From assembly GCA_020137815.1 (NCBI GenBank), contig CM035359.1, positions 3,410,001-3,474,000 of the forward strand: a DNA stretch of 64,000 nucleotides, read 5' to 3'. Shown one piece after another: positions 3,971 to 60,864 of the stretch. This DNA comes from Hormiphora californensis. Lineage: Eukaryota; Animalia; Ctenophora. The position numbers were made by a program, and so were the translations under genes. The notes under the pieces were generated by a model. The model did no database searches and was not told where the DNA came from. It saw nothing but the letters and a program-made list of their open reading frames with translations. Position 1 is the stretch's first letter. Every line of letters begins with the position of its first letter.

Positions 3971-4347
3971 TTTTTCAGTTTGTCGTTTTTTTGGGAAACG
4001 TTAAAATTTTGGTGTTTCGAGTGTCAGCACTCACGTTTTTTAGGGTAGGACATAAAAGTAGGGTTAGGGCTGGGCTGGGGTTCAGGCTTGCGATTTCCTA
4101 TCAGACAACCTTTAAATTAGCCAAAACGGTGGAGTGGTTAGACCCATACCAGTGCAGGTTACTTTGCTTTTTTGGCGGCGTACGCCTGTAAACAGGCCTT
4201 AAACACCTAATAGCCCCTTGCCAGAATATGCATGAAGTTTTATTTTTGAATCCACTTTAAAAAATAAGCATGTTTTCAAATAACCTAACTTGTTTAGCAT
4301 GTACTGGCGCTAGTTTCTCGCTCTCCCATGCCGGTGGTCCTGTGTTC

Positions 4348-14363
<10,016 letters not shown>

Positions 14364-15743
14364 GAAATAATTAGCACATGTGATAGTAGATCGAAGATGT
14401 TATAGTAGATCGAAGTTTCTTATTAACAGATTGATATATATATTAGCTGAAGTGTTGAGTATATTGTACACAGAATATTGTGTGGGCGATATGTATTGGG
14501 TTTGTGGTCTGGTACCATGGTGAATATTGAATCCCTACAAGATCGGTGTGAAAGTAGTTGTGTGTTTGTATGTTTAATTATATATTGTGTATCATGCCCC
14601 ATCTTATATACTGTGTAGGGGCCAGGAAAGTAGTGTCATAAAACGGCCGTTCAGGGAGTGCATTGAGGGATGAGAAATATCATTCTATCATCTTTTGGTG
14701 TGTTTTTGTAAAGTTATTGTGAGTAAAAACAGCAATGCTAGTAGAGTGTGTGTAAATTTATCCATTCCTGCGTGCAACAATCTCTTTTATTTTGCTATAA
14801 CAGTGGTGCTCCGTCATATTGGCCGGCAGCACAGCGCTGCCCAAAGCATTGTCCCAAGATACGCAAAAAAGCATTTCATGTTAGCGGGAGACGTCATGGA
14901 CATCGCTTTGGGCGGCCATTATGACGGAGCACCACTGTTAGGAATTCTTAGATATCTCCTTCGATTAATATCAATTGAATGCTGCTGCAGTAGTGCACTA
15001 ACTTAGGACTTAATAAATCCATTTAGTTTTTAAAAAGAATATGTATCCTTCAGGTGTATATTTGTGATCGTTGCAAAAGTTACAGGCCAACTTATGAAAA
15101 GTACCCGGGTATATTTTCCAAATGTACCCGGCGCCACACGTGTACTTTTGGTTAAAAGATACCCGGGTACTTCTTGCAAGTTGGTCCCTTATTTTCCCTC
15201 TCCGTTCTGTCATTGGTCTCTGTATAATATCCCGAGATAATGTTTCTTGTTTTTTTTTTCAACAGAGACAGTATTTGTTACACAGTTATTTGTTATACGC
15301 TTAGACAATTTATTTCAAAACTTGACCAAGTAATCGACGAGTTGTTTGTTTTACTAATATCAGATAATATAAGTGACGTTGAAGTTTGGGGTCCCCATGG
15401 TGTTTCATGTTTGCTAGTCAGGTCCGTTCTGATTGCTCGCAAATCCAGTATCCACTGTCTGTCATCACCAGACCACGTTTTCATCTCTAATCTGAGTGCA
15501 CGACAGCCCTAAACTTTGAAGCGATCGCCCCACTTGATGTCGCTGTGACGACATTTGCAACTTAACGGAAGACGCTGCTATGCAGCTCGTTCGTCGCATC
15601 TCCCTGCCGCGCAGCGCGCGTTAGATTTATGCGACGCGATTTTAATTTCAATTAAAATATTTCAATTTCGTTAGTTCAAAAAAAATCAAAAATTTTCGTT
15701 TTTCGCCAAAAAGTTTTAAAAACGGGATCTCAGTCTAAAACTA

Positions 15744-18700
15744 ATGTTTTGTCCTACCCCGAGGCTACCACAGGTAACCCCTGATTTTTTCCCTGCCCGG
15801 GTGAATGCCGAAGGCATTCACCCGGATGCCTTTTTACTTTGTAAAAAGGCATAGCAGGGTTTTTTTCAAACTTTCATCAACTACAACGTAAAACTATTTA
15901 TTGAGGCGGCATCCCCCCTCAATTGTTTCAGTCGTATGACCCTACTCTGAGGAAGCTGATAACAACAATGTCTGCAGCAGTAGTGCAAACTGAAAAGTCG
16001 GCTGACAAGAAGTCGAAAAAGGAGCCTGTGAAGACCGTGATACCTGAATTCCTGTTGGCGGAAGCACCTCCCCGCGCCAAAGCGGTCCTTGAGTTCTACA
16101 ACAAATTGGAATGCAAGGTGGACGCCCTGTTGAGCGAAAGTATCATCAAGATCAAGTCTAAGTTTGGTGCACCGTACATTGAAGAACTTGCGACCTACCT
16201 ATATCTCTGGACATTCGGCAAACAGAAAATGAGAAGGGCTACAGAAACATCCCCCTCTTAATCCACCGCTGTCTTCTGAAAGCCAGATCATATACCCCGA
16301 GTAAGTGTGGGGTCTGCTCGGAATATTACTGTGTCGAAAAGGACACTGTACCCGTTTTCACCTGTTGGATGTGTTTTCAGGGAAGCCACGACTGTGAAGG
16401 AGTGGCCAAAATCTTCTCCACCCTGTACACCATCACTCAGCCACTGACGGGATTTAACTGGACCTGCCACTCCTGTACCGAGAAGGGTAGTCTCGATCTA
16501 ATGTCGAGGATACCTGTTATCCCGGGGAAAGATGATCCCGTGGTAGTGCCAGTTGAAATTATCACCCCAGACGTTACTGAAGAAGCTGTAGCTGGCGAGG
16601 GCTTAAGCAGGGAATCATCTAAGGTCCCTTGTGCATTCCTGGCAGAAGGCTACTGCAGACACGGGATATCCGGTAAAAAGGAAGTGAATGGGGAAACCTG
16701 CCGTTTTCTCCACCGTAAAGTTTGCAGGAGATTTAGACTGTACGGATCTCATTCCCGCCATGGCTGTAAGTCGGGTTCAAAGTGCTCTAAACTCCACCCA
16801 AAACTATGTGAGGGCTCACAGCGGAGAATGAAGGAACGACAGTGCTTAAACCCTGATTGCCCGCATCTCCACCTAAAGGGTACACGAAGGAAAGAGGAAA
16901 ACCCTGAGAGGAAAGAACGTCAGGAAGTTGTTAGGACAACACGGCAACCTAACACTCACACCACTGACCAGAGAGAGAGAGTGCAGGATGAACAACTCCC
17001 TCTTAGCGGCTCACCATTGCGACCAGTTTCGCAGCAATACCCTGGACATCTACAATCGGGTTTTCTGAGCATTGTCTTGAAGGAGGTCAGGAATGCAAGA
17101 GAAGAGTCACTGAGGCAAGCGGACAGAATGGAAGAAATTCTCTCCCAGCTTGGCCCCACCCACAGCGAATCAATGCTGCACAACCAGCTGGCCCACCACT
17201 TACAAGCACACCCGCCGGTGCAGTACACCCTACCTACAGGTACCCTCACTCAAGGAGTACATCGTCAACTCCCGACCCAAATACTGCCCTCTCAAAGATT
17301 ATCATACTAAATGGGAGAAGTATTTCACCGGCTGCAGGGGGGAACACTCGGTGGAAACTCCCTTTCATCGAGGCTGTTTTGTTAAACAACCCAAACTCCC
17401 CGCCGACAGTTGCCCTTGCAATAACGGAGTCATGGTTGAAAAACTACATTGCAGATGCCCAAATCAAAATGCAAGGATACAGCACCTTCCGTTCTGACCG
17501 TCCTGACCGGAAAGGAGGAGGTTGTGTTTTGTACATCCGTGAGGACATCCCAATCAGCTACGCATACTCATTCAGTGACCGGGAATGCAGTCTGGTATTG
17601 GCTTTTAGTAAAGCTAAAAACATGTTGTTTTCATGTGTCTACCGTCCCCCCGACTCATCTGACCAGTCCTTCATCACAGTTATGAATGATCTCCAAGATA
17701 AAATTAATCTCCTGTCCAATGAAAGGAGCCCTGAAATGTTTATCATGGGCGATCTAAACTTGCCGTTGTTCAACTGGAAAGAAGAATCCCTGCCGTCAGC
17801 TGGCAGCTGCTGCTAACATAGCGGCTTATCAACGCACTGTGAACTTCATTGAGGAAAATTTCCTAACTCAGGTCGTAGACAAACCAACTAGAGGAAGTAA
17901 TACTCTGGATGTTATAATGACCAACTCACCCCAATACGTATCAACTGTGACAACCGAAGAGACAAAGATTTCTGACCACAGGATAGTTAACTGTACCCTG
18001 GTGATAAACCCCCTTATGAAGACAGCAGATACCATCAAAAAGTGGGACCACATGAGTTTCCGAGGGTTGGACATTCAGAAAGCCAACTTTGAAGACATGA
18101 ATGTAGACATTGCTTCTGTTGATTGGGACGAACTGCAGGCATTATGTGAGGAATCTGGAGACCCTGTTGGTGACAAATTCAAAGAACTTTTCATTCTAAC
18201 TGTTTTGCAAATCACCATCAAACACACACCTCAGAAGGTTCAGCGGAGGAAATTCAGCCCCCTGGAACCACTGAAAAGGAGAAGGCGGAAACTAAAAACA
18301 AGACTGGAAGCAATCTCTTCTGTCAATGTTAACATCTCCAAAATCGAAGCACTCGAAGACGAGCTCACAATACTTGAGGAGAAGATAAAACACTCTGTGG
18401 ATGAATCAATCGAGAAGAAGGAACACAGCGCTGTTGATACGATCAAGGTCAACCCACGATATTTCTTTTCCTACGCAAAACGACTATCAAAAGTTAAATC
18501 GAACATTGCCCCTCTCAAACGTGATGATGGAACACTCACCACAGACAACACTGAAAAAGCGGAACTCCTGCAAAAACAGTACTGCCGTGCTTTCAGTGAT
18601 CCAGACGGTGGAGACTTGCTGAAAAGTCTTTCTTGGGTTGAGGATAGCAGTGCGATTTTGGAGGATTTCACATTTACGTCTGATGACATTAAAGGAGCCC

Positions 18701-21700
18701 TCTCAGAACTTGACCCTGCTTCTGCCGGACCAGATGGTGACATCCCTGCTAAAATTCTCAGTGCTTGTAAAGCCACTCTTGCTGTACCACTCTTTCTTCT
18801 TTGGGAGCGGTCCTTCGAAGAAGGAATAACACCCCCAAACCTGAAAAAGCAGTACATCACACCAATCTTCAAGCGTGGTGACAAAACTCTTGCTGTTAAC
18901 TACCGCCCTGTTTCACTGACTTCTAACTTGCTAAAAACATTTGAACGAGTTGTACGAAACAAGTTGGTGGATCACCTTGAAAGTAACAATCTTCTACCAG
19001 ATAGTCAACACGGGTTTAGGAAGCAACGAAGCTGTCTCACACAGTTACTTGATCACATGGACGGAATCTTTCGAGAGCTAAACAGCGGGAACGAAGTCGA
19101 TGTAATCTATTTGGACTATTCCAAAGCCTTTGACCGTGTCAACCATGCTATTCTTCTTGCCAAGCTGGAAAAGCTAGGCATCAAAGGGAAAGTACTAAAT
19201 TGGATAAAAGACTTCCTTTCTGGTCGGTACCAAACAGTTACTGTTGACGGTGAAAAATCGAACTTCGAGCTGGTCAAAAGTGGAGTCCCTCAAGGGACCG
19301 TACTCGGACCAATCCTCTTTATCATCTACGTAGCTGATCTCCAAAGCCAAGTAATCCACAGCAAAATCAGAACCTTTGCGGATGATACCAAGCTCCAAAA
19401 GAGTGTCGACTCGGAAGAATCAGGAGCAGAAATGCAAGAGGATCTCCAGCGTGTGGTGGAGTGGTCTGCAGCCAACTGTATGACACTTCATGAGGACAAG
19501 TTTGAGGTTATTCAGTATACTCTGAACAGAACATCCCTTCTCAGAGAACTGCCTTTCACCCATGACCTTAGCTCATATGTGACTCCAGGTGGAAATGAAA
19601 TACAGCCAACGGATACAGTGAAAGACCTTGGCATCACTCTATCAAACAATGGCTCTTGGACAGACCATGTCATGAGGATCTCATCAGAAGCACGAAGGAT
19701 GGCCGCCTGGGCACTGAGAGCTTTTAAAGATAGGTCAGTAACCACTATGCTGACACTCTACAAGTCACTAATAAGGTGTAAAGTAGAATACTGCTCACCT
19801 TTATGGTCGCCCTACAAGATTGGTGACATCCAGGCGCTGGAGAGTATCCAGAGACAGTTTACCCGAAGGATCGAAGACATGGCACAACTTGACTATTGGG
19901 AACGGCTGAAAAAGCTTAGACTGATGTCATTACAACGACGGAGGGAGCGATACTCGATAATACAAATGTGGAAAATCCATAACGGTGCAGCCCCTAACAG
20001 CACGAATACCCGGTTTTACCATCATCAACGGCTCGGCATCCGAGCCGAAGTACCTACTCTTTACAGTGGAGCACAGAAGTCATTCTCAACAAAATACTTC
20101 CACTCTTTTACTGTAAGGGCCGCTCGGCTATGGAACACATTGCCGAAAGAGGTTAATACAGCAGCGACCTTAGATACGTTCAAGATCCTGCTGGGCCGTT
20201 GGCTGGACCACTTCCCTGACAATCCACCTGTGAAGGGTTATTCTACCCGGAACAACAATTCTATCATGGACTGGGTTTTGGAGGTTCGAGCTAAAGGGGG
20301 ATGCTGAAAAGACTGACACCGGTTACGATTCTGTAATAAAGTTTATTTATCAAGTTTATCAAGTTTATCAAGTTAGAATTCGAAATAACAATAAAGCAAA
20401 AGTTGAGATTCTCCATCCTTAGGTCAACTTTGAGGAGCTTGAGAGGTTGTAGGGTACCCATAAGAACACCAACACTGGACAATTTTGACTTCAACCTTTG
20501 AAATGTCATTAGTGATGAGAGACTATTTTTATATTATTTATCAATTTTTTAGTGTGTAGGCGTTTGATTAAGTTATTTTTCTGCACAGCCCACACAGGGA
20601 CCATATGATGACTTGATTCACACCTCACCGTGTCTAGTGGCTGCTCTGCACCGTTTCACCCCTGAGGTCCCTAGTGGGTTGTGTAGTATATGTTAGAATT
20701 CGAAAACGACATTTTGGTATACTAACTAATCGGTAGAGGGACATTTTTTGGTCACACTTTTGTCGCGAGGGGCAACGGTGTAGCAACTAGAGCCGCGCGC
20801 ACAGTGACGAGCTACTCCTTCATCAAACACCTCATTGACACAGTTTGATGGACGTGTGTGCGCACGCCACTCAATAAAACATGAAATGCTCTGCCACGCG
20901 TTTCGCGTGTTACATACATATTTTCATCTTGCGAGTCGAGTGTGAGATGTTAGATAAGTAGTTAAGTTGGAATGTCAAAAGCTGGTTAGCAAGTGTCATG
21001 TGATTGGGAGTTAACTACTCTAAGCTATGTGAGAAGTATACTGACAGCTAGATCGTATGCATCTCACATTACATTATGACCAAGCCCTGATCCTGTTGGC
21101 AGTGACAATGTGAAACGGTAGGGCAGGGAAACTCAGCATTATGAACACATAATGCAATAATTCTTGTTCTACTGAATACAAGGTTTACCACGATCCATAA
21201 ATTGGATTTGGAGTGAGCGAAGCTGATCAGAGTCCAGTGGCGTAGAAGTCAAAATTTACCAATCCGGTTTGAACCGGCAGAGATGATCTGTGGCCAAGAT
21301 CACAACCAAATTTTGAAAAGGGGAGCTCACAGAGAAAGGAATACACTTCAAGAACTATCTTAATTTCAAAGCATTCATAAAGAATGTTGATCTTCTCGGA
21401 TTCCTAAACCCGGAACCCGCGAACAATGCGAAATCAAAAAGATTTATGGAGACTGGAGTATGGTGAATTTCATGATTCCCAGGGGCAAATCCTCCATTGA
21501 TGAAGCCACCAGTTTAATCAGCCTTGAAAACTTTACCTGGCTGTAACTGCATTGTCCAGAAAGCTAACATCTGAAAAATTGGGCCAATCTCACTTTGAAG
21601 AATATTGATTCTTCTCACAAACAAGAATTATTTGCATTATGTATCCATAATGCTACGTTTCCCTGCCCTCTTCGATTTGCCATTCAACTCGCCATTAAGC

Positions 21701-24700
21701 TGTCCGCAAAATGGGGATTTGTGTTTTTCGAACTTTTGAAAAAAACGCAAAACATATTTTTCAATTTCTCCATTCCCCAAAAACGCGCGGCCGATATAAA
21801 ACAAATTTTGCCGCGCGTTACAGTTTATAGCCGCGCACGCCTCATAAATTTTCAATAGTTTGTGGGCGCGCATGTTACTCCGCAAACTTCAAATCGCGCG
21901 CGCCGCACGGTTGCCCCTCGCAACGAAAGTGTGACCAAAAAATGTCCCTCTACCGATTAGTTAGTATACCAAAATGTCGTTTTCGAATTCTAACCCTGCT
22001 ATGCCTTTTTACAAAGTAAAAAGGCATCCGGGTGGATGCCTTCGGCATCCACCCGGGCAGGGAAAAAATGAATCAGGTAATTCTTCCAATAAGCGTGGGT
22101 GAGTTTTACGGTGTTTAGTTGGGAAAGTTTCAATAGCCGAGGATAAACTACACCTCTTCAGCTATGCGGTGAACCCGCTTCAGGAGTGGCCTTTGAGAGT
22201 TTAGATTTCTGTGTTAAGTCCCTTTTTTCATTTTACCTCAAATCTCTAAATGTTATTAGCATAAGCAATGCTTATGCTTATGCTAATAACATGCTTAATA
22301 AGCTTAGCATGAGTAGGGTGTGTTCTTTCATCAAAAAGTGGGAGAGAACAGGAACCAAAATTTTGAGTTAGACGAAAGAAAAAAAGAGGAAGAAATTTGG
22401 ACATCCCCTGATGGCTAACTATTTTGATAACCTACCCTCAATGTATTCTCCAAATGCCGTTATTTCAAACAAATGAATGCACGCCTCTCCTTCACTTTTC
22501 TGCAGTCTCATGACGACAACCTTCACTTCATGCACTCCACTGCACTTTACTGTATGGGATGCCGCAACAGTCTCCAGAGTCAAAGTACCGCACAAAACCT
22601 CTTCTCCGGTTCCCTCTGTGTATATCTTGGCTCCTTGAATCCTTTCATACATGTCCATGTTTACATGGGAGGGATAAATAACAAAGTATGCAATCCAACT
22701 TGGCCAGCTAAGCCAGAGTTTTAGCCATATTTCTTGTCCTTGGGTGTTGCAAACAGAGTGGGCGAGAGTTGTGAGATTTCCATCGATTGCAAAGTTACCC
22801 CCCAAAGATTCCCACGTGGATGAGAATTCGGCTCTGGCGAATGAGACCTGATGAATGGCCTGAGAGGGTCCAATCATCGCCACCAGGAGGAACACTAGGA
22901 CCACATTTTTTGCCATTCCTGTGTCAATAAAATTTGCCAACTTGGCTCAGCCAAGTAAAGCAAAGCAAGTAAAGCAAAGCAAAGCAAAGCAAGTCGATTA
23001 ACGAATATAAAGTAGTAGTAGTAGTAGTAGCTGCTCTCTAGGTCTACCTATATAATAGTTATTGTTAAATGATTATATTATCATTATATTGCGGGCTTGC
23101 TCTCTTCTTGGAGTTGGCTCGTTGATGATTGTTGAATAGTAACAATACTAATACATATATGGATGGGCAACTCTCTTTTCTTACAGCTCCGGGCGGAGCT
23201 CGCCAAAAGGGGGTTGAGCTAGGCAATCAGCTCATTAATTATTATTGAACAATACTAATAAAACAATTTGCTCATTGATGATTATTGAACAATTATACTA
23301 ATAAAACAATCAGCTCATTGATTATTATTGAACAATTATACTAATAAAACAATCAGCTCATTGATGATTATTGAACAAAACTAATAAAACAATTGGCTCG
23401 TTCCTTTTTTAGATAGATGTTCTAATACTTGGTGATGACATCCCCTATTCGCAGGCTTCGTTTAGCCGCGCTGCGCGCGGCTAGTGTAGGGGTGGCTGCG
23501 TCACCAATTCTAATACTTAAACTCACCGGGCAAGATAAACAGTGACAGTCTGACAGACAGCAACAATCTTATCCAATTCTGAATCGGTCCACTCGGCACT
23601 CTCACTTACTTTGCCAGTTTTGGCTCGTGTCTAAGATGATAAATTATCAACTTTTAATACATTAACCTCTTCTTATAGGTAGCAGTGGGTATTTTAGGCA
23701 ATGAAAAACTGAGGACACACCATGTCTGCTGCTTCAAAGTCACTTTACGGGGTGTTCCCCATCTACAAGCCATCAGGTAATAGCTGTAGTAGTAGTAAGC
23801 CTTCGGGTAATACAATATGTTGGGAATTAGGTTTGGAATAAATGATAACATGGAATACATGGTTCTGCAAAATTACACCCAAATAATATATTGATACTAA
23901 ATCATGTAAATATCCATTCCCTTTCCAGGCTACTCAACCAGTGCGGTAATCAAAATCATAAAATCAAAACTTGGTGTTGAAAAGGTGAGCCATTTCCCAC
24001 ATGTCTTTTTCCACAAGGATCAAAGTCATTGTTTTGGCATCTCTCGAAATTGTTTTTTAACTTATTCATCGTTCCTATTTGTCTTTTTTTGTCGTCAGCG
24101 AGGCTATTTCTCGATCCATGTGGCAGTCCGACTTTTGGTTCCTATTTGTCTTGCTCGACCCTGCTTCACCGAGGGTCTGAACAAAACAATGCAAGTTCCT
24201 ACTATTATATCTGTCACCTCCTCCACCCCCATAACATCTCTATTTCTCTGTTTGACAGTGTTTTGGTATGCTAGAAATATGATTTTCCATATCATACAAA
24301 AACATGTGATCATGCAATGTGTGTACATCAACAATTGTTGTGCCACGTTTGTACCCAATCACGAGCCACACTGTGTGACTCACACACAACGGCGAACATA
24401 ACAAATACATGACACCTGGAAAATAAAACATTGATTCCCAATGTATATTTCAGTCCAATCGGCACACAAAAAATACACGTTTGAGGGCGTTATAAATAGC
24501 ACACAAATGTGTATCCAGGACACATCGACAAATATCAAAATAACATGGGTTGATTTTATGTGATGCTGTTGAGGCTCTACGTCAGAGTCGCAATAGTATA
24601 ATACATGTTCAAAGAAATTGTTTTGTCCTTTTTGGTTAGTTTCCCATAGACTTCGTTATGTACCACTGCTTTATTTCTGTTTTTACAACACTCCTACACT

Positions 24701-27374
24701 CACTTTTTATACCATTTCCTCTCTCTATCTCTCTCTCTATCTCTCTCTGTCTCTCTATCTCTCCCTCTCTCCATCACTTCCGCCTGCACCACCAGCAAGA
24801 CACCGCAGCAAATATATACCAGCACTGGTATATTTTTAGAGCGCTTCGACGGAGGGCGCCCAGACGCACGACATGGCTGAGAGTCACTTGGCGCGATGAC
24901 AACAAATATGAGGACGCGCGCACTTGACTTTGTGCTGGCAAGCGCAAACGTTACATTTCAAACACGGCCGATTTGAAAACAGTCTTCATCTCCAGAGTAC
25001 CTCAAATCAACTTATCTTTTTTCACGTACCTTCTTTTCATATTCTAACCCGTTTTCTCCTCTCAGATTTGCCACAGTGGTGCCCTAAGTAACTATGCCGA
25101 GGGAGTCATGGTAATGGGCGTGGGAAAAGCTGTCAAATACAACAAGGTATATTTTTATAATCGTTGTTAAATTAGGGCTTTATTTATATGCCTTTCACTA
25201 AATTCTGGATCATAGAACCAAGACAGATGTTCTCAACCGAAATCTTCTATATTTGGCATTTCTTGTATGACATTAATTAACAACAACAGAAGACGAAAAA
25301 CAGAATAAATTCCCCGCTCGGGCAGCACATTTTTGATGACAGACATGACGCACACTGGTCACGATATATTGAAAGATTTTACGATCACCATACATGCCCT
25401 GTTACAGAGTATTTAAAGGTGGGATGCATTTGTTACTAAGCAAGGATGTACAGTAAAGTGCACGGTAGAGTTAGACAATTGTATCGCCAGTGACGCCAGT
25501 ATAGTCTGATAGTATCAGTGATAGTATCAGATAGTATCAGATAGTATCATTAATAGTGAAGCACTCGGGGGTAATTAGATGTGGAACTTATTTTAGTAGT
25601 ACATAGTAGTAGTGAGGAAGTTTTGTTTTCTCCTTCCGGCTGGACAAATGAGTAGACGTAGATTTTATTGTAGAATAACGCTATCAATTTCGGCGCACAG
25701 CACCATCTTCAGGCTATACGTTATTCTACAATAAAATCTACGTCTACTCATTTGTCCAGCCGGAAGGAGAAAACAAAACTTCCTCACTGATATGCGGCTA
25801 ATAAACAATCAACCGATCCTTATTCTCTACATAGTAGTAGATTAAGATTGGGTAAGTATGTTTGTTTGACTTTGTGATTGCTGCGTCTGGAGGATGACCC
25901 GCTAGTGCTCGTAGTAGAGGCCGCACCGAACACGCTGATTAGGCCCTCCAACACGTCCAACACTCGACTCCGCCGTAGCAAGGCCACCCACTATTCAGTA
26001 TTCGGCACAGTCCACGTCTGAGTGAGATAATCTCACTCAGACATCACAGAATTTCTCCCAAGTGTACAATCTTTTTACAAAAATTAGAGTTGCTACATAA
26101 ACTAGAGCATCTCTAGTTTATGTAGCAACTGCCCATGTTAACTGACTTTATTGCCCTCTTGCATACAAAACAATTCCACCCTTCTCTCCCCTTGGTAATG
26201 AAATTACCCCTTAACCCCTCTGTTATTATTGCTCAATGCTCATGTATGCAATAAAAGGGGTGACTTCGTAACCAATCTCTCCCCCTCCAACCCCTCTCCC
26301 CCTGCTTCAGGCGATTCAACAGCACCAACGGATGTACCTGGTGAGAGGGATGATGGGCGTAGCTACCACCACAAATGATGCAGCCGGAGACTTTAGTAGG
26401 GTAATTAATTAGTAGAGTAATTAATAGTTAATTAGTAGGGTAATTAACTAATATCACCTCGCCTATCTGGCGGGACGTCGAACACCGTTATGATATGCGC
26501 AAGATTAGGGCTCCTTCATAACCTAAACCATCTTTCCAGGTATCCCCGTATTACCATATCACAGAAAAGGCCCTCCGAGAGGCGTGTAATGAAGTGTTCG
26601 TAGGGAAAATCCAGCAAACACCACCCACCCTCCCTAATTTCAAGTATGTTTTGTTTAGTACCTAAAATTAAGCGGTTACCACATCTTTGTGGTGTAACTA
26701 CTTTCAACCTGAATCTTCATAATTTGAAGATACTTGCTTTGTTCAAACATCCTACTCTCCCACTTGGGTACATCACGCCCCCTGTTCGCGTGCCCACTGG
26801 GCGATCCCCTCACACAGCCTACTCTCCCGCAGATTTCTTCAAAGATACCGTCCCAGTTCCGACCACAACAACTCAATCCTTCCTGTAAAACAAGCTGACG
26901 TCCACATAACATCCATCGATGTTATAGAATTTGATCCACCTAGTTTTCAACTGCATGTCCATACAGAGGGAAGGATATATCCGTGCTCCTTGATAAATGA
27001 TCTGGGAGAATTGTTAGATTCAGCGGCCCATCTTACACACCTCTGTCGCGTGCAACAGGTACAAAATCATGCTTACTTGGAGTCTGCAACTAGAACGCTG
27101 TGTATGGATTGCAAAATGAGACCGAAAAGGGTGCTTTACTTAGTCACTAAGTTAGTGATTTTAGGATTTAACTTAAAGTAACTTTATGGCATTTTACATT
27201 TGAGAGAAGAATCCAAGTCCAAAAAGATGACTTTTCAATGTCTAATATATTTCTCCATTCTCCCCTCAGGGTGACTTTGGCTTCCGGGAAGCTATACATT
27301 TTTACGATTGGACTGAAAAATCGATCCAAGAAAACCTTTATTTGCCGAGCAATGATCCTGAACTAAACTCCTAG
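15744..27374 (+). CDS. Small orphan protein (~101 aa), 4 exons; host gene of a 9.3-kb first intron
   Basis: Exons 15744-15773, 25066-25146, 26311-26400, 27270-27374, all phase 0 with good pyrimidine-tract acceptors. Product: MFCPTPRLPQICHSGALSNYAEGVMVMGVGKAVKYNKAIQQHQRMYLVRGMMGVATTTNDAAGDFSRGDFGFREAIHFYDWTEKSIQENLYLPSNDPELNS. Linkage of exon 1 is inferred; no homolog was recognised. Confidence 0.55.
15862..15905 (+). other. Spliced-leader-like sequence at the 5' end of the LINE (retro-copied SL, not an SL RNA gene)
   Basis: tttttcaaactttcatcaactacaacgtaaaactatttattgag matches the ctenophore SL pattern as I recall it (..CAAACTTT..CAAC..CTAC..TTGAG, ~40 nt). It is followed by GC rather than a GT donor or Sm site. 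Confidence 0.7.
15969..17310 (+). pseudogene. LINE ORF1 (PHD-like and CCCH zinc fingers), one frameshift near 16200
   Basis: CGVC...CWMC..SHDC...WTCHSC and repeated C-x7-C-xn-C-x3-H motifs; two overlapping frames. Confidence 0.75.
17379..20307 (+). pseudogene. LINE ORF2 (APE endonuclease + reverse transcriptase), frameshift near 17816
   Basis: 145-aa APE part plus an 822-aa part containing the SDH endonuclease end and a complete RT. Confidence 0.88.
22419..22916 (-). CDS. Secreted F-type-lectin / galactose-binding-domain-like protein, nested antisense
   Basis: Signal peptide MAKNVVLVFLLVAMIGPSQA; motifs SST...AIDG....AHS....WL.L and LCG...C...CIHLFEITAFG typical of fucolectin/discoidin-like folds. 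Confidence 0.7.
   Translation of the reverse strand: MAKNVVLVFLLVAMIGPSQAIHQVSFARAEFSSTWESLGGNFAIDGNLTTLAHSVCNTQGQEIWLKLWLSWPSWIAYFVIYPSHVNMDMYERIQGAKIYTEGTGEEVLCGTLTLETVAASHTVKCSGVHEVKVVVMRLQKSEGEACIHLFEITAFGEYIEGRLSK
25613..25827 (-). mobile_element. Penelope-like short insertion: 70-bp perfect inverted repeat around a hammerhead-like core
   Basis: Arms 25611-25680 and 25719-25788; 13-bp direct repeat tacatagtagtag at 25600-25612 and 25828-25840. Confidence 0.6.
25679..25718 (-). ncRNA. Putative minimal hammerhead ribozyme
   Basis: The minus strand reads GC-CUGAAGA-U-GGUGC-UGU-GCGCC-GAAA-UUGAUA-GC: core boxes CUGANGA and GAAA, a 5-bp stem II and a very short stem III. Confidence 0.5.
26192..26275. 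mobile_element. Mini TTGGT...ACCAA element with 9-bp TSD (Mutator/Merlin-like)
   Basis: TSD tctctcccc on both sides; ends ttggtaatgaaattacccc / ggggtgacttcgtaaccaa. Confidence 0.75.
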
Positions 27375-30706: not shown

Positions 30707-54456
<23,750 letters not shown>

Positions 54457-55207: not shown

Positions 55208-58200
55208 CTAGGGTTTACATCTCTCCGCAGTCCTAGGGTAGAGACAGTTTTCTCTGATGTTGTTGGAGTTGAGGAGCCACATCAGGTACCTGCGAAAGGG
55301 TAGTGAGGTTTTAGAGGTACTAGTGATATGAGGTACTAGTGATATGAGGTAACTATCGAGATCAGTCGATAGAAAGGCAACAGGACCACTTTTAAGATTG
55401 CGATAGTGCGAGAAAGAGACAGAGAGAGGGAGGGCCAGGGGGTAACCGGTAAGTAACATACCGTTCGAGTCCAAGGCCGTATCCACCGTGAGGACAGGTA
55501 CCGTATTTCCTCTGGTCCACGTACCAGTAATAGTTTTCAGGGCTGATACCTGGATAGAGGGGGTGTTGGTCAGTGATCGGGGGAAGCTGTTTAGCTGGTC
55601 TGTGGACTGTGGAGAGGAATGGGACCTGAAGAAACTTTAGAAACATGTCATTTTCCATACGTACACAAAATCCAGGAGAATTGAATGACCAATTAACGGG
55701 GCCTCCAATTAACTACATAATAATTAATTACCTTCTCGTTTAAATCCAGCAGCCAACTCCTGCTCGTCGTATATCCTCATGCTACCTCCAATAATCTCTC
55801 CAACGTTAGGTAGGAGACAGTCCACACTCTCAGTCACTATGGGGTCTGCTTTATCCGGCTGGGGATTGGGGTGTCAGTCAGGGTCCAGAGAACTTAATTA
55901 TCATTTTCTCCCTTTTTCTCATTCTCTCTCTTTACTGACACATTTCTTTCCTTCTCCCTCTGTCTCTCTCGTTCCCTTGTTACCTGCATATAAAATGATT
56001 TCATGGCCTTGGGGAAGCGACACAGAAGAATGGGAACCCCTATCATATCCGTCATTTTCCGTTCAGGGGCTTCAGGGATGTCATCTCCAAACTCAAATGT
56101 CGTACCTGCAAAGACGTTGGTTAGGAGGGGAACTGTAGGGGTCAGGGGTTGATACAATGGCTTGTAAAAAAGGATTGGAATTGGAATTGATCTACCGAAT
56201 CGGTAGATGAGCTAGGTAAAATAACGGCCAGTAGAATTAAAATACTGCCACAAAATCTCTTACCATCCTCCTTCCTGATTCCATTTTCCCTGCAGTACTC
56301 CAGGGCGTCCCTATAATCCATCCTCTTGAACGGTTTCTGGGGGACTTTGAAGTTGGGGTTGAGTTCCCTAACCAAGTCCCCGTGTTTCGAGTTCATGATT
56401 CTCGTGGCAGTGTCCACAATGAGGTCCTCTAGGGTGTCCAGTAACTGTGGGGGGAAGGTGCGGGGTTAGAAAATAAATTAGACTAGGGCAGGGGGTATGC
56501 TAATAATATATAAAATCAGGAGGCTACATATAGAACGCACCCAGGTTTAATTTCTTACTTACATCGTCAAAAGTTATGAAAGGTAATTCACCCTCAATGT
56601 GGGTAAACTCAGAGAGATGCCGTCTAGTGTGGGAGCTTTCCGCCCTATAACTCTGTGCTATACAGTACACATCTTGAGGAGAGAGGATTGAGGGTTAAGG
56701 ACGGATTAGGTTATAGTACAAAAGTAGGAAGTTTCAATCAAATAGTTAATCAATTAACTAATTACTTTATTAATTAATTAGAACTTACTTCCGACAGCAG
56801 GTATACACGTTTCCAGATAGAGTTGAGAGGACTGAGTAAGGTATGCCTCATCCCCAAAGTAGTTGAGTTTGAAAAGTGTCGAACCACCCTCTACCTGACA
56901 CTGTACCAGCGTTGGTGGGGTAACCTGGAGAGGACAAACAACTCTGTTAATCTTATGTTCTAAACCATTTTGCGGTGAAACAGGGCAAGGGAGGACATAT
57001 TGTCGAATATAGTAACTTTGCAATTCGCATGATCATTGTTAAAAATACTTTCGCACACTCAAAAAGTAGAAAAGTAACAAAATCTCAAAACACCAATTAA
57101 AATACCTCAACGTAATCCTTGTCATAGTAATGATCCCTAAAGGCCTTGATTGTTGCATGTCGGACCTTCAGGACCTTGCTCATGTTCTCTCCCCTAATCC
57201 ACATATGCCTGTTGTGGTACATGACATCTAGGGGAGAAGGGGCTGTCAGTTATCAGAACAGAATATTTTTTTATTGGGTCGAACTATTTTGGGTGGGAAA
57301 CATTTATAGTATACCCTTGGATAACAACCAAACATAGATTTACACGGGTTTCAAATTGAACAACCTATATCAGTTTTCACTCTCTCTCCAATAGTTACCT
57401 GGGTTACTCTCCGTGTTGAGAAGATTATCAACACCCCCCGCTGGAGATCCACCCACTAGCTCCCAATAATCAGCCTTCAGTTCGTGTCCACCAGGAGCCT
57501 CCTTCCCTTCTGGAACGGCTGTTAGTGTTCCGAAGATGGCCACTGAGGACTCCTAAGGGGGATATATTAGAAGTTTTATATCCTAACTTTCCTTTATGTT
57601 TGCGGAGAGAGAGAGGGTCGAACAAGACAGGAGAGAGCTAGAGAAGATGATATGGGACAGGGAAATAGGAAGATGATAGTTCAAAAACAACTCACAGAAA
57701 TAGGAAATTGCCCCGGTAGCATACGATAATGTCTTTGAGCAATAATGCCTTTGGGGAGTAACAGCATAGATAATTGGGTAAAGGCAAAAGCGTCAAAACA
57801 CCGAAGGCAAAACTGACCCAAGGCATTATCGTACGTAATCATTGCCCCCCCCCCCCCCCCCAAGAAGATAATAATTGAAAGGGGGGCCCGTCACCTTTTT
57901 TTTGCCCATATTTGCCCATATGGGCAAAACTGAATTTTCAAAAATCGTGGGACTTTGGGCAAAAATGGGCAAAATGAAATTTTCAGTGTTATATGTCATT
58001 TTTTCAACTCTATAACTTGATTTAACTTATTCAAAGTGAAAGTGAACAGCCCTGATTTTGATATAACTCGGTCAGAATGGTATTTGGTGTCATATTAGAA
58101 GTCAAAAAAATTTTAGTGCTCAAATCCTAAGTTTAGGATTTTTTAGGTTTTTAGGTGTTTTGGCTTTCATGGGTTTCAGAAACGTCCTAGAACAAAATAA

Positions 58201-59079
58201 ACCCATAAAAGCCTAAAACCTTTAAAAAATTTAAAAAATCCTAAATTTACGATTTGACCACTAAACAATTTTTTGACTTCTAATGTGACACCAAAGACCA
58301 TTCTGACCGAGTTTTATCATAATCAGGACTGTTCTCTCTCACTTTAAAGAATTAAAATCAAGTTATAGAGTTGAAAAAACAACAAAAAACACTAAAAATT
58401 TCATTTTGCCCATTTTTGCCCACTTTTGCCCATTTTTGCCCATATGGGCAAAACCAAAATTCGCTGGGATTATGGGCAATGGGCAAAAAAAAAAAGTGTT
58501 GCCCCCCCCCCAATTGAAAACCTGAAAAACAACTTACAGTGGCCAATAGAAGTGCATCATAAGTTTTACACTGTGTATCGGTTAGCACGCACTGCAGGAA
58601 GCCCGTTCCATCTCTCAAGACTAGGAAGATCAGGTTCTTTCCTTGTCTTCGTAATCGATGTACCCAACCAAACACCTGAAATTAATTAATTAATTAGTCA
58701 ATTATACATGTGTATCTCAGTTATTTTGGTCATACCATTTTTCCCCGCACGGTGAAGGCATTCACCCGGATATGGATGCCTTTTGTAAAAAGGCATAGGG
58801 GTTTAGAATTCGACAATTTTGCATACTAGATGAATAGTAACTTTCTAGGAGTCAGTAAAAACCTTTAAAAAGTTATGGATACTCTGTAATACAGAGTCTG
58901 TATCTGTTATATACTTATTGTTAAATACTTTTTTTTGGAATCTTGAATCTAATTTTAATCTTGAATGGGTCTTGAATCTTCAGTAACTTTGTTCCGAGAG
59001 CCTCTACACATTACATACCTCAAATCACACTACATACATGCACGAGTGGAAGAGGGAGAGAGAGAGGGAGGGAGGGAGG

Positions 59080-59146
<67 letters not shown>

Positions 59147-60864
59147 CTAATGTTCCATCCCTCGATATAGATCTGGGAAAATCATCTCTTGCATGGCTGT
59201 ATATCCTTCACTTCCTCTGTTTTTAGCTCGACTATCCGACTCTTGATTTTGAATCTTTTGAAGCAAAGTTATTCGCTAAATTTCGTTCAAATGATGCCAC
59301 CACCACCACCAAAAAAGAAGCAGAAGATCAAGAAGCAGACACTTCCCCCTTCAAGACAAAAAGAGTACAGGAAGAGCTATGCTGCTCGTCGGAGGAAAGT
59401 AAAACTTGAAAATGAGCTGAAAAGTTTACACGAGGAACAAATGGAGGAGCGAAATGATATGATGCTAAGATTGGAAAAAGCGGAGGAAATGGTAGCGTTA
59501 CTGCAGGAAGAGATGGAGGTATTGAAAAGGGACAGTAGAGTGCTGAGAGAACTGGTTGCGAAATTAGGATTGTCCGTTAGATGTGATGCTATTGAAAACT
59601 AGCAAACTTAGTAGAATTGTTTTAGTGAATTGTAATATACTCGTGAGATCAATTGTGTAACGATTAATTTAGTATTACAACTTCAACTATATGCTATAGT
59701 TTACTAAATCTGTGTTATTTCTATCTTACCTTCACTCTTTGATCCCTCAGCTCCCCCAAACTGCTAATCTTGGCTTGTTTTGCAGTTGGTAGTGAGGGGT
59801 CTTCTGAGATAGTGATCGATTTACTGTCTTCCAAATTAGCAGCACGTTTCGCAGCCTCTTCCGCGTCTTTCTCAGCTTTTCCTTTAGACTTACTGATCTG
59901 TGGGAAAGATTGTGAGGAAAATAGAGGGAGAGCAAATATTTAGTTTAGTACCCAGCGGGGATTGTGTGGGATACCCTGGGAAAAAAGGGAGATCCAAATT
60001 CACAATTCTTTACCTCTCGGTTGTACACTTTAGTGAGCTTTTTCAGTTGAGCCTGTGAAATAACACTGAACTTCTCTCCTCCCTCTTCCTTTGAGTCAAC
60101 ATAAATCGTTGGGAAGGGCTCCTGGTGGGAGATATAACTTAACCAATTACGGAAACGAATCAGGTTCCGAACAACATAGCTGGGCGAGGAGGCGCTACCG
60201 CCATCTGAGGCGTTTCACCCCTCACGCGCACCTAAAAACACAGAGTCTAATGCCGGCAATAGCTAGTTGTCATAACTAGCGCGCGCTACATACTAGCAAT
60301 AGGGTTGTTCGCGCGACACGGCAGTCACCAACTCATCACACTCACACTGCAGTACATTTTATGTATCATGAATATCATGAATGAATATTGTACTCACTTT
60401 TGCCCAATGACGCATCGCTTGAAGGGGTGTCTTAAAAGGGTTATCAGCCGTCCCTTCTCCCTTATCATCACTACCCAGTTTGTCTGATGTGTATAAAGGC
60501 TGAACCTGGGGGAGAATCGTGGGATTTTAAAAACATTCCCCCAAAACCAATTCCACCCTCCCCTGACAACCCTATTTCATGATAACAGGTCCCCAAATTA
60601 TTTTCACCTCGTACCTCTGTGGCCATGGTCATGGTTCGTGCGATTGGTCGAACTACTGCAGTGGGTTTTGAAACTGGCGGCGGGCTCACAGGAGCTGCTG
60701 TTGGTATAGGACGGAGTACAGAGGGTGTGGTGGTTTGTATAGGACGGTAGGTTGCACTCTGTCTAAGAGGGGGAGGTATCAAGTACTAGCTGTACTTTAC
60801 ACACACACATGAGAAACACACATAACACGAGATCACACTAAGATGTAGAGGGTGAGAGAGAGAT

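Follow-up and report, generated by a model that had tools for sequence, protein, structure and literature searches.

A 4.5-kb CR1-type LINE at 15862-20372 (+) of the window, the 64,000-nt stretch of Hormiphora californensis DNA analysed here, begins with a spliced-leader (SL) exon. That this leader head is a trait of the family, which was copied from trans-spliced RNA, is well supported. Our preferred reading, to which we give a probability of about 0.52, is that the leader-headed LINE was copied from trans-spliced RNA and that its unit-length RNA is remade when host transcripts that read through into it undergo a further round of trans-splicing at the final AG of the integrated leader.

Insertion site and coding regions of the LINE

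The LINE interrupts a non-coding DNA transposon with inverted repeats, within the left arm. The target was the outer left terminal inverted repeat of this transposon (15784-15861), which is 97% complementary to 21992-22069. The left arm resumes at 20372-20385, and the remainder of the transposon (20372-22069) includes an inner arm (20692-20780) and the right arm (21906-22069). The unbroken target can be read in the intact right arm as GCAGGGTT-AGAATTCGAAA, with no interruption, and in contigs of the sequencing runs other copies of the target arm run on as AGAATTCGAAA at 15861. The 5' junction of the LINE is thus set by the interrupted repeat, as an earlier note on this DNA had proposed. GTT is present at both ends of the LINE (15859-15861 and 20372-20374) and represents either a duplication of 2-3 nt or a short stretch of microhomology to the repeat tail, (TTTATCAAG)x3, which, together with AATAAA, is part of the 3' UTR (20308-20372, +). 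About 300 nt of extra sequence lie between two copies of TTAGAATTCGAAA inside the left arm of the transposon (20373-20700).

ORF1 (15968-17310, +) contains CCCH fingers, for which the Pfam zf-CCCH match reached only E 0.067, and a PHD-like cysteine pattern that was read by eye and had no Pfam match. Near position 16200 it carries 2 extra nt, which are absent from all contigs of runs X1, X4 and X5 that span this position. ORF2 (17274-20307, +) encodes an APE endonuclease and a reverse transcriptase (Pfam Exo_endo_phos, E 2e-6; RVT_1, E 4e-31) with a frameshift between 17807 and 17827. An intact relative of 975 aa (P0159) is 95-96% identical to the window ORF2, the identity being spread over two frames. 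The named relatives of ORF2 are ctenophore proteins, from Pleurobrachia bachei (64-79% identity by stretch) and from Mnemiopsis and Bolinopsis (near 50%). Both ORF1 and ORF2 are broken in the window copy, and with these two frameshifts it probably cannot serve as an autonomous source.

Members of the CR1/L2 group have a microsatellite 3' tail, a very short target duplication and a PHD-type ORF1. The element has the organization of an APE-type two-ORF LINE, with APE and RT domains in ORF2, and its repeat tail, the GTT at both ends and the PHD-type ORF1 (by eye) agree with these CR1/L2 traits.

The spliced leader at the 5' end

A block of 42 nt ending in TTGAG (15864-15905, +) was identified as a retro-copied spliced-leader exon, with 42/42 identity to the exons of three SL RNA genes (loci L002, L003 and L007). 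It is preceded by two additional T (15862-15863, +) where the SL gene has AG, and the T run of the leader is 7 nt long versus 3 in the gene. In two other leader-headed elements, L008 and L006, this run is 8 and 4 nt long, and the AG of the gene is missing in all three elements. The head had been put at 44 nt; 42 of these are leader, while the first TT is not. The suggested resemblance to ctenophore leaders was borne out, since by eye the block and the leader published for Hormiphora have the TTTCAAACTTT start and the TTGAG end in common (accessible part of PMC8527503). According to the same part of that report, 56% or more of the Iso-Seq reads from Hormiphora carry the leader, and genomic leader copies number 718 in Hormiphora and 491 in Mnemiopsis.

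Metagenome contigs were scanned with a gapped pattern, which returned 10 loci, and five of these have the exact 42-mer. The other five, along with all five matches in the genome-contig collection, were rejected as chance matches with unrelated middles; the viral contigs gave 0 matches to the leader pattern. Within the window a single match was found versus 0.08 expected (18-mer, 3 mismatches), with no second leader copy, and the exact 42-mer would occur by chance at about 7e-25 per site. By these estimates, a chance origin of the leader block is excluded. The block is not an SL RNA gene, as had been stated from the outset: it is followed by GCGG and not by GT, no qualifying Sm site was found, and there is no likeness to the sequence downstream of the exon in SL genes. 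Sequence identity and context support its assignment as a real spliced-leader exon, present as a retro-copy and not as an SL gene.

In the DNA runs the leader block appears as a sharp-edged stretch of high depth. The leader depth summed over contigs (231,000 in X4) is no measure of copy number, since contigs that overlap are counted more than once. Within 15822-16300, the block is the sole part covered deeply by X22, a probable RNA run, in which six contigs with sharp edges lie on the block, differing from it by 2-3 letters, and two of them have other sequence behind. Based on the identity of only 80-88% between the MYST exons of X22 and those of the window (the MYST gene is described in the last section), this run comes from another, more distant ctenophore species, and its leader differences were dropped as evidence against a refreshing of the leader. 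A low-depth DNA contig (X1, X4) at 15864-15887 contains tandem partial leaders, one of them after GAG where the gene has CAG. These may be a record of reverse-transcriptase jumps and of cap copying.

SL RNA genes

Three of the five loci with the exact 42-mer (L002, L003 and L007) read CAG-exon-GTAAG, with the exon followed by a GT donor. At 7 nt past the donor is GATTTTCCG, a candidate Sm site which agrees with that of Hydra SL-A in 8 of 9 positions. Upstream of the exon, the three loci have a conserved stretch of about 130 nt in common, and beyond this stretch the flanks of L002 and L007 diverge. By this anatomy the three loci are SL RNA genes; folding of the SL RNA gave z values of -0.8 and -1.6, no better than shuffles, and there was no Rfam match. 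The conserved upstream sequence seems to point to an external promoter, which the retro-copies lack. The genes on L002 (1-2073) and L003 (1-1723) are located about 1.6 kb upstream of the start of 18S rRNA, on the opposite strand, and likely sit in the rDNA spacer.

Copy number of the leader junction

In the DNA run X1 the junction between leader and UTR is covered by a single unbranched contig (15879-15945) with 0 differences and a depth of 245.8, which corresponds to the sum of two downstream continuations, the window lineage (109.2) and a diverged lineage (133.4; a 3754-nt contig splitting after 16001). Since single-copy flanks in this run have depths of 20.9-29.3, the junction is present in about 10 genomic copies. 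Run X4, from the same sample, gave an identical unbroken junction at a depth of 252. Among the copies extending into the UTR, nearly all carry the last 27 nt of the leader, leaving little room for another upstream sequence, with the proviso that contig depth is a rough measure and that rare variants are lost in contigs, so that a single source copy with a promoter might have escaped notice.

Full-length copies had been expected to share the junction and perhaps to carry different SL variants. The common junction was found, with no branch at 15906, whereas one leader version is common to all copies in the junction contig and no exchange of leader variants was seen there. A one-off retrocopy, which the earlier note had named as the outcome that would undo its proposal, is contradicted by the roughly 10 copies and by two unrelated elements that share the leader head. 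The UTR was also found in run X9, which has a second organism label, and in the more distant run X22 its first 23 bases follow the end of a leader. Behind 15905/15906, at least 14 contigs in X1 and at least 25 in X5 continue from the leader into varied sequence, the consensus of which is not the SL intron; many further leader-headed retro-copies are likely to exist in the genome.

Other leader-headed elements

The remaining two loci with the exact 42-mer, both on metagenome contigs, contain elements unrelated to the window LINE. In L008 the leader is followed by a 77-nt UTR and by an ORF with a PHD finger (E 4e-6), and the element sits inside an antisense fragment of a CR1-type ORF2. L006 (1-1252, -) is an ORF1-only element of 1.24 kb with a leader head, a 20-nt UTR, a 319-aa ORF and a (TATTTG)n tail. 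Sequence searches with this ORF gave no useful match in Pfam or PDB and only weak leads in the Atlas (Transposase_22 at 0.86). The top 11 Foldseek matches to its structural model (pLDDT 72) were LINE-1 ORF1p, with a best E of 2.5e-5. Relatives of L006 number 26, many of them on contigs of 1.2-1.5 kb and two in Pleurobrachia gene sets; none was found in the genome-contig collection. With only 9 nt upstream of the leader, L006 may be RNA-derived. The downstream sequences and the ORF1 proteins of the window LINE, L006 and L008 show no significant mutual similarity, and no tandem leaders are present in any of the three. Several ctenophore LINE families thus begin with the host spliced leader, which is broader than could be seen from the window.

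Origin of the leader head

In the window LINE, L006 and L008 the leader is joined at the exact donor position. Trans-spliced templates are indicated because this junction recurs in three unrelated elements, which template switching would not give. The proposal that the element RNA was SL trans-spliced and then reverse transcribed agrees with the identity to SL genes, the donor-exact junction, the multiple copies and the presence of the head in three elements. Such templates would have been capped RNAs, reverse transcribed up to a point about 2 nt short of the 5' end; the T run could stem from slippage or from pairing at a T-rich target.

An alternative is that the leader has no role in the cycle and goes back to one or a few old capture events, or to template switching, or to insertion into SL genes in the manner of NeSL/SLACS. 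In its favour, the depth of the leader block points to a great abundance of SL genes in the genome. This account is nevertheless largely refuted by the three independent junctions. Moreover, what flanks these elements is not SL-gene upstream sequence but a transposon arm in one case and an antisense fragment of a CR1 element in another, and the leader exon is unmutated in all three elements, against a divergence of about 7-12% in ORF1 between family members. We regard this account as highly improbable.

Remaking of the 5' end

Since the lineage persists, either leader-headed copies are transcribed and trimmed again or hidden sources exist. For the first of these a cycle can be proposed in which a host read-through transcript would be trans-spliced again at the final AG of the integrated leader to give a new unit-length RNA. 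The old leader would be removed with the outron and replaced by a new one, so that each copy would retain one perfect leader and need no internal promoter. Re-trans-splicing is favoured because of the lone AG of the leader, a TTCAT motif, the very short UTRs, the single perfect leader and the absence from the retro-copies of the upstream promoter that SL genes seem to use. The only AG in the 42 nt is at the end of the leader, and TTCAT, branch-point-like but a common motif, lies 29 nt upstream of it, an arrangement which fits the scanning for the first AG described at splice acceptors (PMC9068804, as far as its accessible text goes). The 5' UTR of the window LINE (15906-15967, +) is 62 nt long with the ATG of ORF1 at 15968, each one nucleotide less than the approximately 63 nt and 15969 first given; in L006 the distance from leader to ATG is 20 nt and in L008 it is 77 nt, counted to the ATG of the long frame. 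The UTR contains a 4-codon upstream ORF at 15936 and an acceptor motif (TTTCAG, ending at 15931) which is stronger than the GAG of the leader but looks unused, the 25 nt upstream of it being kept in the window.

The acceptor itself is of an unusual kind. The leader ends in GAG with TATTTATT and does not have the YAG and pyrimidine tract of host-like acceptors; all five host cis acceptors examined were CAG with a C/T tract. In human data no acceptor is less favoured than GAG, and in tandems of the form GAGHAG the second AG is usually the one spliced (accessible part of PMC2699507). In L008 a CAG is located directly behind the leader. A hairpin between the end of the leader and the UTR (15900-15923) was predicted in the window LINE. 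The pairing of UTR and GAG had a predicted probability of 1.00 in both the window LINE and L006, equalled by 1 and 3 of 1000 shuffles in what was a post hoc test, and in L008 no pairing beyond chance was found (683 of 1000 shuffles reach its value). Such a hairpin over the GAG would hinder use of the acceptor.

Another possibility is that the RNA comes from hidden source copies equipped with a promoter and with an outron that ends in a standard YAG acceptor, the leader-headed copies being mostly dead ends similar to processed pseudogenes. Use of a weak GAG would then be unneeded, and the hairpin would arise only in mature RNA and hence be costless; the broken state of the window copy is in line with this view, as is the conjecture put forward for flatworm loci (see below). 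The X1 junction contig argues against it, being unbranched through 15906 with a depth equal to the downstream sum, as do the occurrence of the UTR in X9 and of the 23-nt piece with leader end in X22, which imply that the lineage lasted although trans-splicing would strip the promoter. On balance, hidden sources appear unlikely.

It is also conceivable that the integrated leader acts as an internal promoter or initiator, with transcription from its own first base, no second trans-splicing and the hairpin shielding the AG. Transcription of nematode SL RNA reportedly needs internal elements (Hannon 1990, by its title). A promoter role has been proposed for the dinoflagellate leader (PMC6050394, in the part accessible), the hairpin over the GAG is predicted in two of the three elements, and the T that replaces AG in all three could be inherited. 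The T runs vary in length (7, 4 and 8), however, and the conserved stretch of about 130 nt upstream of L002 and L007 points to an external promoter that is absent from the retro-copies. Transcription from within the leader is, in our estimation, decidedly unlikely.

We put forward re-trans-splicing in a wider form only tentatively, at a little short of an even chance: several LINE families, autonomous as well as ORF1-only, would have given up their promoter, with the integrated leader serving both as 5' end and as the acceptor at which any host read-through RNA is recut into an exact element RNA with a new cap, and many of the leader copies reported by the hundreds from ctenophore genomes would stem from them.

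Relation to known systems

LINEs must restore their 5' end and their transcription signal in every cycle. NeSL-1, SLACS, CZAR and CRE are elements with a restriction-like endonuclease that insert into SL genes, and in these, too, a LINE lies directly behind leader sequence. Unlike them, the window LINE has an APE, an unrelated target and no SL-gene upstream DNA; identity as an SL-gene-targeting element of the NeSL/SLACS type was ruled out by the APE domain and the transposon-arm target. CR1/L2 LINEs and HAL1-like ORF1-only elements resemble the elements described here in their two ORFs, APE and RT, PHD-type ORF1 and microsatellite tail, L006 being the ORF1-only counterpart, but CR1/L2 elements have a longer UTR with an internal promoter where the ctenophore elements have a host leader and a UTR of 20-77 nt. 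L1Tc/ingi elements with Pr77, in the descriptions available, are likewise LINEs of a trans-splicing host in need of a defined 5' end; in contrast to the window LINE, they use an internal promoter and a ribozyme, and their RNA is unspliced.

Leader sequences attached to LINE and LTR elements in the genome have been described in flatworms. In Schistosoma, leader pieces were reported on retrotransposons at 6 loci, with the conjecture that trans-spliced transcripts had integrated (Boroni 2018, PMC5832876), and across 24 flatworms 597 loci with partial leaders were given the same explanation (PMC12582326). In the accessible parts of these two reports the leaders are partial and are set aside as by-products or possible misassembly, whereas here a near-complete exon stands at the exact 5' terminus and the leader head is, by depth, the norm of the family and occurs in several families. 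The SL-relict retrogenes of dinoflagellates also derive from trans-spliced mRNA that was copied into DNA together with its leader and expressed again; these, in the text at hand, are host genes with relict leaders that are often stacked, and not, as here, a retrotransposon with a single perfect leader (PMC6050394). About 30% of the Iso-Seq reads of Hydra transposable elements bear a leader; that work concerns RNA, and leader-headed genomic copies are not among the findings in its accessible part (PMC12220107). In the open-access literature searched, no account of leader-headed LINE families in ctenophores was found.

If the proposed cycle is true, it would be a third solution to the 5'-end problem of LINEs besides internal promoters and ribozymes, and with host trans-splicing remaking the 5' end, the life cycle of the element would depend on host read-through and splice-site choice. 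It would also account for part of the 718 Hormiphora and 491 Mnemiopsis leader copies (PMC8527503, accessible part). Counts of SL genes would accordingly have to be read as inflated by retro-copies, and full-length elements could be recognized precisely by their leader head. Even on a weaker reading, the leader head indicates that several animal LINE families transpose from a template of trans-spliced mRNA. The cycle is directly testable in ctenophores, for which chromosome-scale genomes and Iso-Seq data exist.

Host genomic setting

The nearest upstream transcription unit found on the same strand is a gene for a MYST-family acetyltransferase, identified by a Pfam MOZ_SAS match on exons at 13100-14118. 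Its last coding exon and stop are at 14256-14363 (+): RNA contigs run from the exon end at 14118 into sequence matching 14256 onward, and the frame stops at 14361. The LINE begins 1.5 kb past this stop, on the same strand and behind an AATAAA at 15012, and read-through from the MYST gene into it is possible. The sense-oriented intron in which the earlier note had placed the LINE was not confirmed, the upstream MYST gene stopping before it, and a position inside an intron of the MYST coding region is ruled out by the stop at 14361. The LINE possibly lies in an intron of the MYST 3' UTR or in a 5' intron of a downstream TruB-like gene, of which a weak exon was detected at 26723-27178 (+; E 0.03).

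The MYST gene, which includes a PHD exon, covers 4270-14363 (+) and has a single-exon ORF of 455 aa (10919-12286) nested on the same strand. A CRE-like retrotransposon at 1928 to about 3960 (-) is 5'-truncated and has no leader (RT, E 2e-7). The ORF at 22419-22916 (-) begins with a hydrophobic N-terminal region and matched nothing in Pfam. Farther downstream, a rhodopsin-family GPCR was identified at 40839-41480 (+) and exons of asparaginyl-tRNA synthetase at 55395-60214 (-).
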